From the NCBI GenBank assembly GCA_951406725.2, contig OX597826.1, forward strand, positions 51,274,001-51,338,000: a stretch of DNA of 64,000 nt, given 5' to 3'. The notes beneath the pieces were generated by a model. That model was not told the DNA's origin, made no database searches, and was given only the letters and a program-made list of their open reading frames with translations. Position numbers and translations under genes: made by a program. Of this stretch, positions 7,546-55,985 are shown piece after piece (position 1 is the stretch's first letter; every line of letters begins with the position of its first letter). Source of the stretch: Octopus vulgaris. Lineage: Eukaryota.

Positions 7546-7979
7546 GTATGTAGCAGACATACGAACATGGCAATCTCCGTAGATTGAAAAAAGAATGAAC
7601 AACCTTAATCGTTTTCTATTCAGTGGTCTCGATATCATTTGACTAATCTCTAAGAAATAAGCAACCGTTGGTTTATATCAGATGAATGAGAAAGAATGAA
7701 GATACACACTCTTGTATTCGCCATTTTATTAAACAGAAACTGGGAGCCTGTCTCGCGACACCACTGTGACCTTCAAATGAGAGCTGTTACTACTCCGTAT
7801 CGGAAGTGTATTTATATTCTTCGCTGTGTGTTTGTGCAATTAGAGCTATGAAACAAACGAGTGATGAAGAGGCTTGAAGGCACCATCTATTCAATAAACA
7901 CGAAACTAATGAGCAAACACCAGCTTTTGACCATACACCCCTACTTCACAAATACTCTGATCACAAATAAATCTTGCTC

Positions 7980-8010
<31 letters not shown>

Positions 8011-8039
8011 CATACATATATATACACATACATGCATAC

Positions 8040-8077
<38 letters not shown>

Positions 8078-8082
<5 letters not shown>

Positions 8083-8700
8083 TGGACAGGACCACCCGCG
8101 TCAACCTCATTAACAGTGCAGTTCTGCCTGCAATGTTATATGGTAGTGAAATATGGGCTACCACAAAGAGAGAAGAGCAAAGACTGGTAACGGCTCAAAG
8201 AGCCATGGAAAGGTCAATGCTTGGTATCTCGTTGAGAGAGCACATAAGTAGCGAGATCATCAGAAAGAAGTCCGGCGTGAGAGATGTCATCGCAGAGTAT
8301 ACACGCAGCAAGTATAGATGGGCTGGACACGTCGCCCGGCTCACCGATAATCGGTGGACACACGCAGTTGTCGAGTGGTACCCGCGCGAGCGGAAAAGAC
8401 CACCCGGAAGACCTCCACGACGGTGGAGTTACGATTTCAGGAGGACGATGGGGATCACGTGGATGAGAAAGGCGCGATCCAGAGAGGATTGGACAGCGTG
8501 CTGTGACCAGCGGTGTCAAATCGCTTGACAACCGGTGTCGGTTTGCTTACGTACCCGTAACTTTTCGGCACTACAAAAGACACCGATAGTGTAAGTATAA
8601 GGCTGACAAAAAGGTCCTATAATCGATTCTTCAAAGCGGTGCCCTTGCATGGCGGCAGTCTAATAACTGAAATAAGTAACTGAAATAACTGAAATAAAAG
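8078..8700 (+). mobile_element. 5'-truncated RTE-clade LINE: ORF C-terminus (8078-8528) plus 3' UTR ending in (TAACTGAAA) repeats
   Basis: Open frame VLPAMLYGSEIW...QRAMERSMLG...KYRWAGHVAR...RWT...WYPR..KRPPGRPPRRW is the typical RTE C-terminus. Inserted next to (TA)n. Confidence 0.92.
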
Positions 8701-9149: not shown

Positions 9150-10107
9150 GAATAATATTTTTGCGCAAATTATCGATCTAGAGTTAAGCATTGTTGTGTT
9201 GAAGAAGCCCGATGGTCGGGTCGTTTCAGTCGGTTGTCTTTGTTTGAGTGCATTTGTTGAACTCAATACTCTGTATTAACTGTGTTGTTGTTTTCAAGTA
9301 TTTCGTTGTGGATTAGCCCTCCCCAATGTCACCAAACGCATATCATTGTTTTGCATGGATGATCCTCTGGCTTGGCCTGAGGTGTTGCTTGCCAATCTGG
9401 ACTCAGTCATTGTTTCTTCTGTTTCATATTGACGTAAAGGTAACACTTTTCATCGCCGGTGGCGATGCGGAAAGAAATCACTGCTTGATGTCGAACGAGT
9501 AAATTGGCGGCAATATAAGAGCGCTGATATTCTCTCTTTCGTCCAGAGCGTGTGGCACACATACGCCAACCTTTTGCGACTTAACCACTGAGTGAAGGTG
9601 AGGGATGAGAGTATCATCAGAACATCTTTTCTGCCGGGCTAATTCCCTAGCAAACTAGCGCGTATCTTCGTAGACAAGCTCGTCTAATCGATTCTCATTG
9701 AAATGATCAGGTCGGTCAGAACGTGGTGAGGGTGTGACGTCGAATTTCTCCTCTTTGAAGCGCAAAAACCATTTCTGTGCCGTTATTTCAATAACAGCGC
9801 CTTCTTTGTACACATCATAAATGTCTTGAGCGGCTTTGGAAGGAACATTAACTGAAAGCGAAAAGAAGTTAGTATTGAACATGTTTTTTTTTGTAATTGG
9901 CATGCCATGGCCATATGTCTGAAAAGAGATAACATCTATTGAAATTTTTAAAACGACAAACAAAAGGTGGAAAAGAATAATAGAGCTATAACCTGCTAAA
10001 CCCGTCGAAAGAATTAAACAGCGAGAACAAAACACTACGATAGAAAATGTTTCGTTAATTGAAATCACATTGGAAAGAAATGAATGAATTTATCTGACAG
10101 CCCGATA
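9150..10107 (-). mobile_element. Decayed mariner transposon (transposase pseudogene)
   Basis: KAAQDIYDVYKEGAVIEITAQKWFLRFKEEKFDV..SPRSDRP..FNENRLDELV is a mariner N-terminal HTH. Remnant LQHNNA lies near 9190. A TIR-like TATCGGGCTGTCAGATAAATTC is at the 5' end. The 3' boundary is uncertain. Confidence 0.8.
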
Positions 10108-11979: not shown

Positions 11980-12454
11980 TGCAGCATAAAAGCGTCTAGC
12001 TCTTATTTCTAGCAATGTAGGTGTCTGTAACACCCTCTGTCATATTTAACGACGGTTATAGTTCTTGTTGATACACATTGGCTTACTGCTGCCAAAATAA
12101 ATTATTTGTATACACAGTGATTCACTAAATCATCCACAGATTTCTATTACGTAGAAATATATGCTGGGGGTGATTGTCGTCTGGAATCAGCCGAGTCGGG
12201 CCGATCTTACTGAAGAGACTACGGCTAAAGCCGAAACTGACCGATCAGTTTGGGAATATCTCGACCGCTGCTTTTCGGGCGTTTACGGTCCCTGTCAGCT
12301 TGTATGTATACAATTATGTTCTTTGACTGCAGCATTAGAGTGTTTAGCTCTTATTTATAGCAATGTAGGTGTTTGTGACACCCTTAGTTGTATTTAATGA
12401 TGGTTTTAGTACTTGTTGGTACACATTTGCTTACTGCTGCTTAAATAAATTATA
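11980..12454 (+). mobile_element. Hammerhead-containing retrozyme/Penelope pLTR-like unit, family 2 (348-nt period)
   Basis: About 127-bp direct repeat (11980-12106 and 12328-12454) bracketing a hammerhead motif; ends at a TA/TG microsatellite. Confidence 0.7.
12205..12255 (+). ncRNA. Type I hammerhead ribozyme motif
   Basis: TCTTA-CTGAAGA-(gactac)GGC taaa GCC-GAAA-CTGA ccga TCAG-TT-TGGGA. Stems I, II and III can form. The triplet is GUU and there is a 6-nt insertion before stem II. Confidence 0.65.
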
Positions 12455-16889: not shown

Positions 16890-17098
16890 TCAACTTTCTG
16901 AGCGAGAAGTAAAAAGTAGTAGTACGGAATCGTAAAATATAATTGCCAACTAAATGTGGTGGTTCCATATAAGACGATGCTACTGTCGTTTTTAGCCTCA
17001 GGAGGAAATCCCCTTCAGCTGGCTAGCCACTCCCTGTCTGTGTCCGATTAGTATTTGCGAGGGGAAATCATCGTTCCTATCTCTAGCTTTATGTGATA

Positions 17099-17145
17099 CA
17101 CACAGAACCGGGTTTCTGAGTAGTAACCCGTCATCAGTCTGTGAT
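17099..17145 (-). ncRNA. Type I hammerhead motif (inverted, more degenerate copy)
   Basis: Reverse complement: ATCACAGA-CTGATGA-C GGGT tact ACTC A-GAAA-CCCGGT-TC-TGTGTG. Confidence 0.6.
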
Positions 17146-17287
17146 AACCACGAGTTACTGATGAAAACTCGCTCAGAGATTTAATATTACTTATTTCTCC
17201 ATTCTTGTGATCAGCGACAGTTTGTCACTGGAAAAAGCACAGTATTTTGCATGTGGAATGAGTTTTCATCACTAGCTTGTGCTTATC

Positions 17288-17330
17288 ACACACTGATGAC
17301 GGGTTACTACTCAGAAACCTGGGTCTGTGT
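17288..17330 (+). ncRNA. Minimal type I hammerhead ribozyme motif
   Basis: ACACA-CTGATGA-C GGGT tact ACTC A-GAAA-CC tg GG-TC-TGTGT. Core intact, GUC triplet. Confidence 0.78.
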
Positions 17331-17917
17331 ATTTCACTTAAGGCTAGAGATGGGAACGATGATTTCCCCTTGCAAATACTAATCGGACACAGACAGTGTG
17401 TCGTTAGCCAGCTGGAGGAGATGTCCTCCTGGGGCGAAAAACAACAGTAGTATCGTCCTCTATGGGACCGCCACATTTAGTTGGTAATTATATTTTACGA
17501 TATATATATATATATATGAATTAAGCAAAAGGTATGTATGGACTACAATATACCACATTAAGGAAATATGGAATTTTGTCATCGTTATATCACTGGGAAT
17601 ATATATCAGCCATTGACTATTCAACTATCCACCCTATCAGTGTATGTGATGTGAGTACACGCACATATGAAGAAAATATGTATTATATTCGTGATTCATA
17701 CTTTCTGTTTGAAAGGCATAAGTAGTTGCCTCCAGTATATTGAAAAATAACTGCCAATCAGCAATCTCAAAAGGATTACAACACCAACGAATATAAACAT
17801 ATAACCAGAAGCCGTGTTGTAACAGTTCTTGTCTGGAGAGCGAAGGGACGCGAATCTCGTGGCGAAGTAAAAAAAAATTGATTACAAGATATATAATAAA
17901 AATTTGTGTATATATAT

Positions 17918-25642: not shown

Positions 25643-27317
25643 GAGAGACAGAGAGAAATAAAGTGCGAAAGCTATGCTGATTTAATATATTGTTATATGT
25701 AACGTGATATCCTGGCAAACAATAGTTATGTTGTTTGGTGTCCATATTTTGCGTATTTTCGACCTTAAATTTATGTTTATCATTAGGTTTAGTATCGTAT
25801 AATACTAGGTCTATTGAACGGATCTGTCTATGAACGGATGTGTCTGGGCTGAGCTGTGCAACATGTTAAAAATGGGTGCAATCACCAATAGATATTTCAC
25901 CAGCGAAACCGACTGAATCCCCGCGGAACTAGTATCAGACTTTTAGTTGAAACTGAGTCATTATGACCATCTGTATATTTGATAGGAACACAGTGATAAA
26001 CAGTGTGAATTAGTTTAATTAGTTCAGTATTTAAATGTTGATTAGCTCAACATTTAAGTGTCGATTAGATCGACATTTTGCTCGTATTTATTATTTGGGT
26101 TAAACCCAATAAAGTTTGCTGGATTAAAAGTCATTTAAATTAAAATTGTCCTACTGGTGAGCGATATTGTAAGTTACACACATTTTCAAGCGATGTCTGT
26201 TAATTGCAGTGCAAAATAGCATCTGATTGCTTGGCGCGATTCCCATCATTTTGTCAGTAGTTTCTATGGAAGCCTCGTTTAGCTTGACTTTCAATAGAAT
26301 GGAATGAGGTTGTTTTGGTTTGGAAGATGTCATTATTTTCCAAAATGGTACAAACGTCTCGAAGCATAAATTTGGATTCCCGGTCTGAATGGATTGAAGC
26401 TGCAATACCAAATATGAAAAATGTATTTTCAAGTCTGAGTATTTCTGTAGAAGCCGACATTTCTGAATATGCAAACATAATGGAAAACATTGAGCATTCA
26501 TCTTTTACTATAAAGATATATCACTAAGAGTTATAATATGGCAGAATACCAATGAAGTCGATACTGTGACGATACTGTAACGATATTGTGATTGTAGTAA
26601 CGTGATAAATTGTGCATGGTGAAAATTATAGAATCAGTGCTTAAATTCTAATCATGCAATTCACTTGTCTCAAGTCTCTCTTTAAAATCTTACAAAGAGA
26701 ATGGCAAGTCCTTAGATCTGAATTAGTAGCCTTATTTAGTCACGCCAGGATGGTATAAAAGTTTACGTAAATATATGATTGCAGGAGATATTATAATGAA
26801 GTATTTAGTCAATAGCAGCAGCAGGGCTATTGCTGTTTTTGCTCTGATTGTGTAGAATATCATATTTGTATGTCAATAATTCCCCCATAAACGAAGAATC
26901 TTCTTGCTCATTATTTGATATCTAATTTTGTAACTAAACATGATAAAGATTACCTGTTGATTAGTGTTTAATGTGAAATGAACTACAGGTAAAAGATAAC
27001 AAAAGATTTGTCATTTGCTAACACCTTTTATGAGTGGAAGATTCTATTTAGAGGAAGGAATTCTGGAGAAGGAAGTGACGAGTTTATTACACTGTGAAGG
27101 AACGCCGAGGACTGTAGTTCCAGAACCACAAGCTTCAACATGTAGTAGAACTTCAGATAAGACAGGTGAGAGAAAGAGAGAGAGAGGGGGAGAAATGGAA
27201 AGAGATGAAGAGAAAGCGAGAGAAAGGAAGAGAGAGAGGAAGGGAAAGAGGAAGAACGAGAAAGAAGAAAGATGGATAAATAGACAGGTAGATAGATAGA
27301 TATATAGATAGATAGAT

Positions 27318-27727: not shown

Positions 27728-28991
27728 TTGTCGTTAAATATGAAATTTGTAGCAAGAAAAAGTTTGCTATTGTTTTATAAATACAAGGAAAAGTTTTATT
27801 CATCAAAGTATGCACCCATATTGTCAATACACTTTTGCCATTTCAGTGGTAGCTTGTCCAGCCTGGAACTGTAAAAGCCTGGCAATCTAGAGTCAATAAA
27901 ATCTTGGAAGGCCTGTTTTATAATATTATTGAAATTAAACTTTTCTCCTATCAAAAAGTTATCCACATTCTGGAAGATGTGGTAGTCAGTGGGTGCAAGA
28001 TCAGGTGAGTATGGTGGATGATGGAGAACTTCCAACTCCAACTCCTGTAGTTTTGCCAATGCCGTTTTTGCGATGTGTGGTCTGGTGTTGTCTTGCAATA
28101 AAATAGGAGTGGATCTGTTGACTAATCTAGGCTATTTTTGTAAGTTTCTGCATCATTTCGTCCAGTTGGGTGCAGTATACTTCGGCCGTGATTGATGAGC
28201 CAGGTTTAATGAAATCTTAATAGATCACACCTGCGGCAGACCACAAAATACTCACCACCAATTTTGCTTTTTGGACTGTGTTTTTGTGGCTCGTCTTTGT
28301 CCAAGCATTGTGCTGAATGTTTACGGTTGTTGTATTGGATCCATTTCTCATCACATGTTACAATTCGATTCAAAAATTATTCATTTTTGTGACGAGCAAG
28401 TAGCATAATGCAGGCTTCCAAACGTTGCTGTTTCTGATTTTCATTGAGATCATGTGGAACCCACTTATCCAACTTTTCCACTTTACCTATTTGAACTAGG
28501 TGAGTCAATATTGTTTTCTTGCTAACACGAAACAACAACTACAATTCACGGGCACTTTCAGATGGATCTGACTCGACGGTGGCTTTCAGTTCGTCATTGC
28601 TCACCTTTGTTTCTGGCCGGCTGCATTGCTCATTTGTGAGATCAAAGTTACCAGAACGAAAGTTTACAAACCAATTTGATACTGTCTGCTGTGTAATAAC
28701 ATTAGAATGAAATGCTCCAGTAATATTCTGAGCTGCCTGTGGTGCTGTATTTCCAAGAAAGAACTCATATTTCAAAACTGTACGAATTCCCGACTTATCC
28801 ATCTCTAAACAAAAATAGCAAAGAAGATTTATAAATACTTTATAAAGCGCAAAATGAGTTAGAATAAATAAATAAATGTGTCAGCTTTCTAACAAAAAAT
28901 AAAGATTGTCAAAATATAATAATGGCGCAAACTGAGCAGCTGTCAAAGTTTACCATATACCTTACTACAAATTTCATACTTGACGACCTAA
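27728..28991 (-). mobile_element. Near full-length mariner transposon with pseudogenised transposase
   Basis: MDKSGIRTVLKYEF HTH, KWVPHDL, IVTCDEKWI, LQDNTRPH and YSPDLAPTDY motifs, with stops and frameshifts. Imperfect TIRs GTCGT(C/T)AA(G/A)TATGAAATTTGTAG flanked by TA; 1264 bp. Confidence 0.93.
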
Positions 28992-46728: not shown

Positions 46729-46811
46729 ACAGTGAAGTACAGTTGAGTACACTATGCAGTGATAACAATAAAATTGAGAAGTCAGCCAGCAGTGAGCGCA
46801 AGAGGTTGATC

Positions 46812-46854
<43 letters not shown>

Positions 46855-46916
46855 CGCGTGTCCGTGCGTACGTGTGTGTTTGTTTGTGTGTGTGTGTGTG
46901 TGTTCTGATTCCATAT

Positions 46917-46957
<41 letters not shown>

Positions 46958-47040
46958 GATCAACCTCTTGCACTCACTGCTGGCTGACTTCTCAATTTTA
47001 TTGTTATCACTGCATTGTGTACTCAACTGTACTTCACTGT
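46729..47040. repeat. 85-bp inverted repeat (83/85 identical) enclosing a (TA)n/(GT)n microsatellite core
   Basis: Arms at 46729-46813 and 46956-47040. Confidence 0.92.
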
Positions 47041-54690: not shown

Positions 54691-55247
54691 AATCTTAATC
54701 GTAGAGAAAAGGAGTGAAGCGATAGAGGCAGGAAAAGGAAAGCCTCAGTCATTTAAAAGGACAATTAGACTGAAATACGACCGATCTTTTCTAGATTCTT
54801 TACATTTAAGAATGAAGAAGAGTGAAAGTATTTCAGGTGTTTAGGTTTTCATTTTGGGAATTCTAGAAAGTTCAAGTGTTAGTTCTCTCTTCTTATTTCG
54901 ACCCCAGTACTTATTGGCGTTGTTTGATAATTCCTCATGTCTTTTAGTCGGGAGGAAAGACCATGATTTTTTTCAGGCACGTTTAACGTTTTCTATACAA
55001 ACTACAAAGAAGCCGCCTTCCCCTTTTTCATACAAAAACTAATGCAAATTATGAAAGGGGTATAGTTGTAAAAAGAACTCAGAAAAATGGGTAATACTCC
55101 CTACAAAATGGGTGGGGGATAAAAGTCAGCAACAGGTGGCTATACACGAAATTCAGCCCTATGTCTTATAGAGTGTCTTGTACTATAGCCTCCAGCCGAC
55201 CAATGCCTTGTGAGTGGATTTGGTAGAGAAGGTGAAAGAAGCCCGTC

Positions 55248-55295
<48 letters not shown>

Positions 55296-55298
<3 letters not shown>

Positions 55299-55803
55299 CA
55301 TATCAAAGGGAAATGGAAATGAATTAAAATTTACATTTCCAGTGGTCTAACGTGTAAAAATTTAGTCCAAAAGACTATGTATTAGTCATAAGATACAGTG
55401 TACATTTAAACACATGAGGAATGCACTCATAGGATTCAAAACGCTAGAAAGAACAGCTAGGTTCTATAACCACAAAATTAGGGATAAAATTCGACAGGAA
55501 CGAAATGAAAAATAAAAACATTTTACCATCTAGTTTCCTGGACCAATTGGTTTCTGATTTTAGTTTAGCGAGTAAATGAATAACATATACACTCGCCAGG
55601 TGCAATCGTCTTCAGCAGGAACACGTAGGGTTAAACGTATACACACGAGGCGATCAAACTACGTGGCCCATGTTTACACATTCTAACTTTTTTAACATCT
55701 ACTGCGCAGCCGCAGTCCTTCGCCAGCAATAAAAAAATGCCAACTTTTAAAAACCGAAAATTATCCAAAAACTTACAATATTTAATCATATCAAAGAGGA
55801 ATG
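55296..55803 (-). mobile_element. Hammerhead retrozyme-like unit, family 3 (488-nt period), adjacent to (TA)n
   Basis: Terminal redundancy AATCATATCAAAG.G.AATG at 55296 and 55784, with a central hammerhead. Confidence 0.7.
55535..55621 (-). ncRNA. Type I hammerhead ribozyme with intact core and extended stem II
   Basis: Reverse complement TTCCTG-CTGAAGA-C GATT...TGGCGAGT..ACTCGCTA...AATC A-GAAA-CCAATTGG-TC-CAGGAA. GUC cleavage predicted between 55541 and 55540. Confidence 0.82.
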
Positions 55804-55985
55804 CCAGAATTGATAGCGTTTCTTCACGGTCTTTACGTTTTGAGTTCAAATTCCATCGCGTCCAACTTTGCCTTTCCTCCTTTTGGAGTCGATAAGATAC
55901 AGTAACAATCAAGTTCTGGGTTGGATATAATCAATTAATCCCTTCTTAAATTTCAAGCTTTGTGCCTATATCAGAAAGCGTTATT
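55804..55985 (+). mobile_element. SINE family B, diverged/partial
   Basis: GAGTTCAAATTCC...CTTTGCCTTTC. Confidence 0.7.

Follow-up and report, generated by a model that had tools for sequence, protein, structure and literature searches.

The Octopus vulgaris DNA analyzed here (64,000 nucleotides, positions 51,274,001 to 51,338,000 of contig OX597826.1; hereafter the window) carries a minus-strand hammerhead within a copy of a 488-nt repeat. Very probably, this is an old, dispersed hammerhead repeat that was pasted into (TA)n in trans by a Neptune-type RT/GIY-YIG enzyme, that is, a non-autonomous Penelope-like element (PLE) or retrozyme. The repeat is a new family of a known kind (non-autonomous PLE/non-LTR retrozyme), and on genomic criteria it is assigned to the non-autonomous PLEs of the animal non-LTR retrozyme kind. 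No description of the family was found among the papers that searches of the literature listed.

The hammerhead of the window copy is of type I (core 55615-55541), with the CUGANGA, GAAA, and NUH core elements, three helices, and ends in helix I, and it departs from the plain core in that helix II is flanked at either side by an additional unpaired base. A strict descriptor, consisting of six Watson-Crick pairs in stem I and a palindromic stem III of at least 8 nt, matched once in the window and not at all in 100 mononucleotide shuffles of it. The intact core, GUC triplet, 6-bp stem I, and palindromic stem III reported in the preliminary description were thus confirmed, and the motif was the best formed among the descriptor matches in the window, as the claim of a best-preserved PLE-type hammerhead had implied. 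The 54-nt stem II with its own hairpin was also found as described, but it is not peculiar to this copy: domain II measured 40–56 nt across the family (the 100 listed of 141 exact-core places) and 39–69 nt in descriptor matches within unrelated repeats of the genome. The unpaired bases flanking stem II and a competing TTCCTG at 55500-55495 had not been noted before. The isolated fragment folded as a hammerhead with a z-score of −1.1, so that its predicted folding energy is by itself unremarkable. An Rfam scan of the window at gathering thresholds, hammerhead models included, gave no matches. Further hammerhead-like descriptor matches were located on the plus strand at 12210, 17293, and 38651, the second of which is flanked by the two arms of an inverted repeat of 242 nt (16929-17501). 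The coordinates of the features are listed in Table 1.

Table 1. Features of the hammerhead repeat copy in the window and of a Neptune-type PLE in the same genome.
Feature	Position	Strand	Basis or remark
Repeat insertion, 1.04 units of the 488-nt non-coding monomer, without inverted arm	55297..55803	-	Period and family copies
5′ overrun into the preceding monomer ("terminal redundancy")	55783..55803	-	19/21 identical to 55315-55295
Stem I extension, upstream strand	55625..55628	-	Partner 55533-55530 in the family; 79% of cells paired
Stem I, 5′ strand (TTCCTG)	55621-55616	-	Sequence and family covariation
Core C3-A9 (CTGAAGA)	55615-55609	-	Descriptor match and family alignment
Domain II, 54 nt	55608-55555	-	Fold and covariation
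Unpaired C (9a), between A9 and G10.1	55608	-	Within domain II
Stem IIa	55607-55604 with 55559-55556	-	Opens with G55607-C55556 (G10.1-C11.1)
Distal hairpin of domain II	55598-55591 with 55573-55566	-	Separated from stem IIa by an internal loop
Unpaired A (11a), between C11.1 and G12	55555	-	Within domain II
Core G12-A15.1 (GAAA)	55554-55551	-	Descriptor match and family alignment
Palindrome ACCAATTGGT, stem III	55551-55542	-	3-bp hairpin or 10-bp intermolecular duplex
Predicted cleavage site after GUC (GTC), between 55541 and 55540	55540..55541	-	Position in hammerhead consensus
Stem I, 3′ strand (CAGGAA)	55540-55535	-	Descriptor match
Second TTCCTG, predicted captor of the stem I 3′ strand (downstream hairpin)	55500-55495	-	Folding prediction
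AU-rich region where 3′ ends of other copies gather (proximal)	55374..55406	-	Putative first reverse-transcription start region
Distal 3′ end of the window copy and many others, into (TA)n	55290..55300	-	Putative second start site
(TA)24 microsatellite, target	55249..55296		Doubles as tail of a different high-copy plus-strand repeat
Neptune-type PLE	L091:1245-3590 (C16)	+	Further copies L092, L096, L195-L208

In the 2.8-Gb genome, 1979 candidate matches to the unit were obtained, and the 40 that were scored showed 85–96% identity apart from the unit itself. One 21-mer of the family occurred exactly 674 times and the exact C3-type core 141 times, compared with 0 for the respective controls. The family is dispersed and ORF-less: the longest stop-free frame of the 488-nt unit spans 67 aa, frames opened by an ATG reach 52 aa at most, a search of the unit for coding remnants gave none, and it thus lacks the ORF with RT and GIY-YIG endonuclease that characterizes autonomous PLEs. 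Most copies are short 3′ fragments with a median length of about 240 nt, and subfamilies diverge by up to about 20%. In two copies (L104 and L144), about 400 nt from another repeat interrupt the sequence close to the hammerhead. Family copies were also present in contigs from sequencing runs labelled organisms A, C, and D, which show neither ends nor strand.

The ribozyme was likely under selection, as judged from the alignment, because its stems covary and its core pair shifts among C3-G8, U3·G8, and U3-A8. In a structure set of 94 copies, which was gathered with two motifs at no more than three mismatches per motif and is biased towards intact copies, 87.8% of the structure cells were paired, compared with 24–43% in slid controls. 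Double-sided changes numbered 62 against 19.7 in shuffles (reached in 0 of 500), a control that ignores the relatedness of the copies. Between subfamilies, stems II and IIb showed compensatory changes, as did the 3-8 core pair, which was CG in 67, UG in 17, UA in 6, and unpaired in 4 of the 94 copies and was thus kept in 90. Conservation of the core in homologous copies, on which the preliminary description had made its reading depend, was observed not only at the 141 exact cores; among 65 copies that were not chosen by the exact-core pattern, 50 had an intact core, G12, A6, A14, and U16.1 were invariant, and N7 was variable with all four bases. Outside N7 and the 3-8 pair, the core hardly varies. 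In the same 65 copies, which are related to one another, the association of U3 with A8 gave p = 0.06, the extra A between C11.1 and G12 was present in 63, and an A at position 10.1, with loss of the G10.1-C11.1 pair, was present in 7, mostly of one subfamily.

The geometry of the insertions was examined in the first 100 listed of the 674 21-mer matches, a sample chosen to avoid a bias towards long copies, from which five overlapping loci and one near-duplicate were removed to leave 96 segments at 82 loci. The copies are 5′-truncated, partly head-to-tail, often inverted, and end in (TA)n, with TATATA at the 3′ end of 78 of the 96 segments. Ten segments were longer than one unit, and all ten ran head-to-tail into the same monomer and none into an ORF. 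A single insertion (L089/L093) had two hammerheads, 506 nt apart; no other locus retrieved contained a pair at one-unit spacing, and no long tandem arrays were seen in these loci. The 3′ ends were concentrated in two regions, equivalent to window positions 55406-55374 (proximal) and about 55297 (distal), their exact start positions being blurred because the reference itself is TA-like there. Among 52 divergent inverted pairs, 38 joined a distal and a proximal arm, 2 two distal arms, and 2 two proximal arms, and 10 had an arm that ended elsewhere. Of the 42 pairs that could be classified, 38 thus had arms from different sites, which lie about 90 nt apart (p = 3e-8 compared with a coin toss).

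At the predicted cleavage site, 50 of the 57 segments that reached it read through. Of 56 5′ ends, 5 were located within 2 nt of the site; breaks numbered 7 in 593 nt at risk around it, compared with 19 in 3002 nt downstream and 15 in 1954 nt upstream, and inspection by eye of the 100 listed of 134 matches, whose loci are partly shared, gave about 8 breaks within about 3 nt. This excess of 5′ ends is a slight and non-decisive hint of cleavage-defined ends. A seeming enrichment of breaks within domain II turned out to be an artefact of aligning subfamily indels.

The family thus displays 5′ truncation, partial tandems, an inverted 5′ arm, two alternative 3′ ends, and a microsatellite target, which are hallmarks of PLEs. 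According to the parts of the sources considered here, PLE insertions are mostly 5′-truncated, with a tail at one end and an inverted arm (PMC8557442), and the PLE enzyme cuts and extends both strands, uses two internal start sites, and accepts uncut RNA (PMC11167929). The two-site arm geometry, 5′ truncation, tandem overrun, and (TA)n target point to PLE-type mobilization.

An autonomous PLE is present in the same genome, with an intact 781-aa frame containing RVT_1 and GIY-YIG domains and a Neptune-type CxxxxCxxC linker. Its 3′ ends fall at two positions, separated by about 33 nt, and both run into (TA)n; the two inverted pairs observed among its 14 loci were both of the distal-proximal type. 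No sequence shared with the unit was detected, so that this element attests to the enzyme class rather than to the identity of the partner. It is young, with the 781-aa frame intact in many copies and a long open frame upstream, and its hammerhead is of the U3-A8 type with a palindromic stem III. Of 6136 GIY-YIG candidates in the genome, 150 were scored, and BLAST detected no similarity between the unit and 34 GIY-YIG loci, most of which belong to one family. A search for an autonomous partner by a short-stem-II pattern likewise yielded none, with 7 matches against 1 in the control. By eye, another PLE family carries hammerhead-like motifs with an unpaired base on both sides of stem II downstream of GIY-YIG at L058 and L034, and hammerhead-like motifs were also seen in other repeat families (L038 +45, L039 +455/-208, L093 -4040, L094 -892, L034 -690, and L194), with domains II of 21–69 nt and several in inverted pairs.

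The window insertion ends repeat with a period of 488 nt, in agreement with the monomer length given in the preliminary description. Both mismatches between the repeated ends are private to the head copy, which indicates a true overlap of 14–21 nt. The repetition of the ends therefore stands; the notion that it defines the monomer as an end structure does not, since the overrun varies among the 10 of 96 segments that exceed one unit. The window copy carries 10 private substitutions, one of which is in the stem I extension, namely a G-to-C change at 55625, where other copies have G (28) or A (1). It differs by 3.4% from the column majority of its 30 best hits, and its closest relative is 95.4% identical; from this alignment, it ranks among the better-kept copies, yet it is not fresh. 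A contig from organism D crosses the 5′ junction of the insertion with 14 differences in 397 nt, and the shared junction suggests that the insertion is likely old. No target-site duplication was visible around it. It is flanked by two very high-copy short plus-strand repeats (55810-55945 and 55170-55248), the former of which contains a tRNA B-box-like motif. Elsewhere, the window contains mariner/DDE transposase fragments (Pfam HTH_48, rve, and DDE_3) or a LINE-like frame at 9658-10089, 26257-26520, and 27799-28880 on the minus strand and at 7971-8528 on the plus strand, one of which resembles the end of a LINE reverse transcriptase by eye without a Pfam match, and a near-perfect inverted repeat (120 nt, 98%, arms 72 nt apart) at 46729-47040.

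The preliminary description regarded the window copy as probably still active and expected it to cut any minus-strand host transcript. In an isolated 104-nt fragment, stem I was predicted with p = 0.96–0.99 for five of its six pairs, and stems II and III with about 0.5. In the complete unit, with flanks, or in circularized form, the predicted probability of stem I was about 0. It fell from 0.99 to below 0.01 after about 32 nt more had been transcribed, and the hammerhead fold then cost 7 kcal/mol. Stem I is predicted to be lost in context because 55500-55495 repeats TTCCTG, and a cleavage assay on the previously proposed fragment 55525-55630, which omits this competing strand, would thus overstate activity in context. 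The downstream hairpin that captures stem I was predicted in 74 of 89 copies; a selected anti-ribozyme switch is not claimed, since 110 of 150 shuffles of the downstream 60 nt abolished stem I as well. The palindromic stem III was predicted at −0.9 kcal/mol as a 3-bp hairpin and at −13.0 kcal/mol as a 10-bp intermolecular duplex. In the folding model, the hammerhead fold is marginal in context and the window copy is predicted to cut RNA poorly alone; with a single hammerhead, it is likely inert. For comparison, the parts of the reports considered here describe dimer-dependent, slow cleavage for the architecture with a 3-bp palindromic stem III (PMC4209133), cleavage at about 0.1/min for a mollusc retrozyme hammerhead without typical loop contacts (PMC7229834), and no cleavage for 8 of 9 Xenopus retrozyme dimers (bioRxiv 10.64898/2026.07.22.740005). 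No host gene was identified among 99 of the 185 longer non-repetitive frames of the window, a survey that short exons would escape, and Pfam gave only transposon-type matches on those 99 frames plus one sub-threshold DUF. The claim of continuing activity is unsupported by the single hammerhead, the 3-bp stem III, and the predicted loss of stem I, and that of cleavage of host transcripts is likewise unsupported.

We compared the family with known systems as far as they are characterized in the parts of the cited reports considered here. Like animal non-LTR retrozymes (PMC7229834; bioRxiv 10.64898/2026.07.22.740005), it consists of a non-coding, AT-rich monomer of a few hundred nucleotides with one type I hammerhead, occurs as dispersed monomers and head-to-tail copies together with autonomous PLEs, and fits the non-autonomous PLE origin proposed for them. 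It has no LTR or ORF and no PBS or PPT came to light, the latter two without a specific search. The monomer is 488–506 nt, compared with 170–400 (PMC7229834) and 51–972 (bioRxiv 10.64898/2026.07.22.740005). Retrozymes are defined on tandem repeats and known as RNA, whereas nearly all observed copies of the 488-nt family are under 1.4 units and the family is known here from genomic sequence; its hammerhead is of the PLE variant type with a 40–56-nt domain II, unlike theirs. With EN+ Neptune-type PLEs (PMC8557442, PMC11167929), it shares (TA)n targets, 5′ truncation, partial tandems, and the inverted 5′ arm. In both, the 3′ end takes one of two positions, the tail is confined to one end, and the hammerhead lies upstream of where reverse transcription starts. 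It differs from them in having no ORF and a tail of about 80–110 nt instead of 30–40, and its start sites are AU-rich and target-like, whereas the anole Poseidon start site is reported to be non-homologous to the cut DNA. The PLE minimal hammerheads (PMC4209133) share the extra base between 9 and 10.1, G10.1-C11.1, a palindromic helix III suited to dimers, and the U3-A8 core variant; the 488-nt family differs in having a second extra base (A, 63/65), placed between C11.1 and G12, in its far longer domain II, which includes an internal loop, and in the coexistence of C3-G8, U3·G8, and U3-A8 forms within it. The 5′ extra base is thus a described PLE trait, and no description of the 3′ extra A was found in the part of PMC4209133 considered here.

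In the mechanism that we propose, the template would be a multimeric or circular RNA of the hammerhead strand. The PLE protein would cut both strands of (TA)n and start copying from the two DNA ends at separate AU-rich sites within the template, about 145–165 and 245 nt downstream of the cleavage site, and the cDNAs would stop early and be joined head to head, or a single arm would survive, as in the window copy. The hammerhead may slowly process multimers from master copies, either dimerized or aided by a protein, and most of the templates would be uncut or re-ligated when copied. Against this explanation stand the absence of a similar autonomous PLE among the 34 GIY-YIG loci and of long arrays in the loci retrieved, the U3/A8 association of only p = 0.06, the subfamily that has lost G10.1-C11.1, and the blindness of the shuffle control to relatedness.

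In an alternative that we consider improbable, the copies are 5′-truncated pseudo-LTR fragments of a decayed or unsampled autonomous PLE and the 488-nt circle is a secondary by-product. The prevalence of short 3′ fragments, the 5′ truncation reported for most PLE insertions (PMC8557442, in part), and a partner search that spanned 34 loci only are in its favor, but the unit contains no coding remnant and every over-unit segment (10/10) continues into the end of the same monomer rather than into an ORF. There is also little chance that the window copy works efficiently as a monomeric ribozyme and cuts whatever host transcript includes its minus strand. The intact core, the 6-bp stem I, the predicted hammerhead fold of the isolated 104-nt fragment, and the rate of about 0.1/min of the mollusc retrozyme hammerhead (PMC7229834, in part) would agree with it; the loss of stem I predicted in the unit, with flanks, and in the circle at a cost of 7 kcal/mol, the read-through in 50 of 57 cDNA segments, the lack of a host gene among the 99 of 185 window frames, the weakness of PLE hammerheads alone (PMC4209133, PMC11167929), and the inactivity of 8 of 9 Xenopus retrozyme dimers (bioRxiv 10.64898/2026.07.22.740005), as given in the parts of these sources considered here, speak against it.

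The read-through of most templates would equally suit a hammerhead that is a decayed relic without a role in the spread of the family, as would the unusual extra A before G12 and the in vitro PLE insertion that is independent of hammerhead cleavage (PMC11167929, in part). We regard such a relic as unlikely in view of the compensatory changes in stems II and IIb and the 3-8 pair between subfamilies and the near-invariance of the rest of the core besides N7. A more far-reaching version of the proposed trans-mobilization, which we put forward tentatively and as the less probable outcome, is a living retrozyme: a 488–506-nt circular RNA made by master copies would be copied from both ends of the (TA)n break by a dimeric Neptune RT/endonuclease whose subunits start at different fixed sites, and the hammerhead would represent a previously undescribed form of the core, in which stem II is bordered by one extra base at either side and C3-G8 is in the course of changing to U3-A8 via U·G. 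If so, a single small RNA would serve to test both how the inverted arm and tail of PLEs arise and what PLE hammerheads do in vivo.

The window copy itself is ordinary; the family offers a natural experiment. From its inverted insertions, priming at the two ends of a DNA break appears nearly always to use different fixed sites, which supplies numbers for the known PLE tail at one end. The family ties an invertebrate retrozyme-like repeat to PLE-type mobilization, for which the arguments have until now come mostly from sequence similarity in vertebrates, and its core variants could readily be used to test the tolerance of PLE hammerheads to individual changes.
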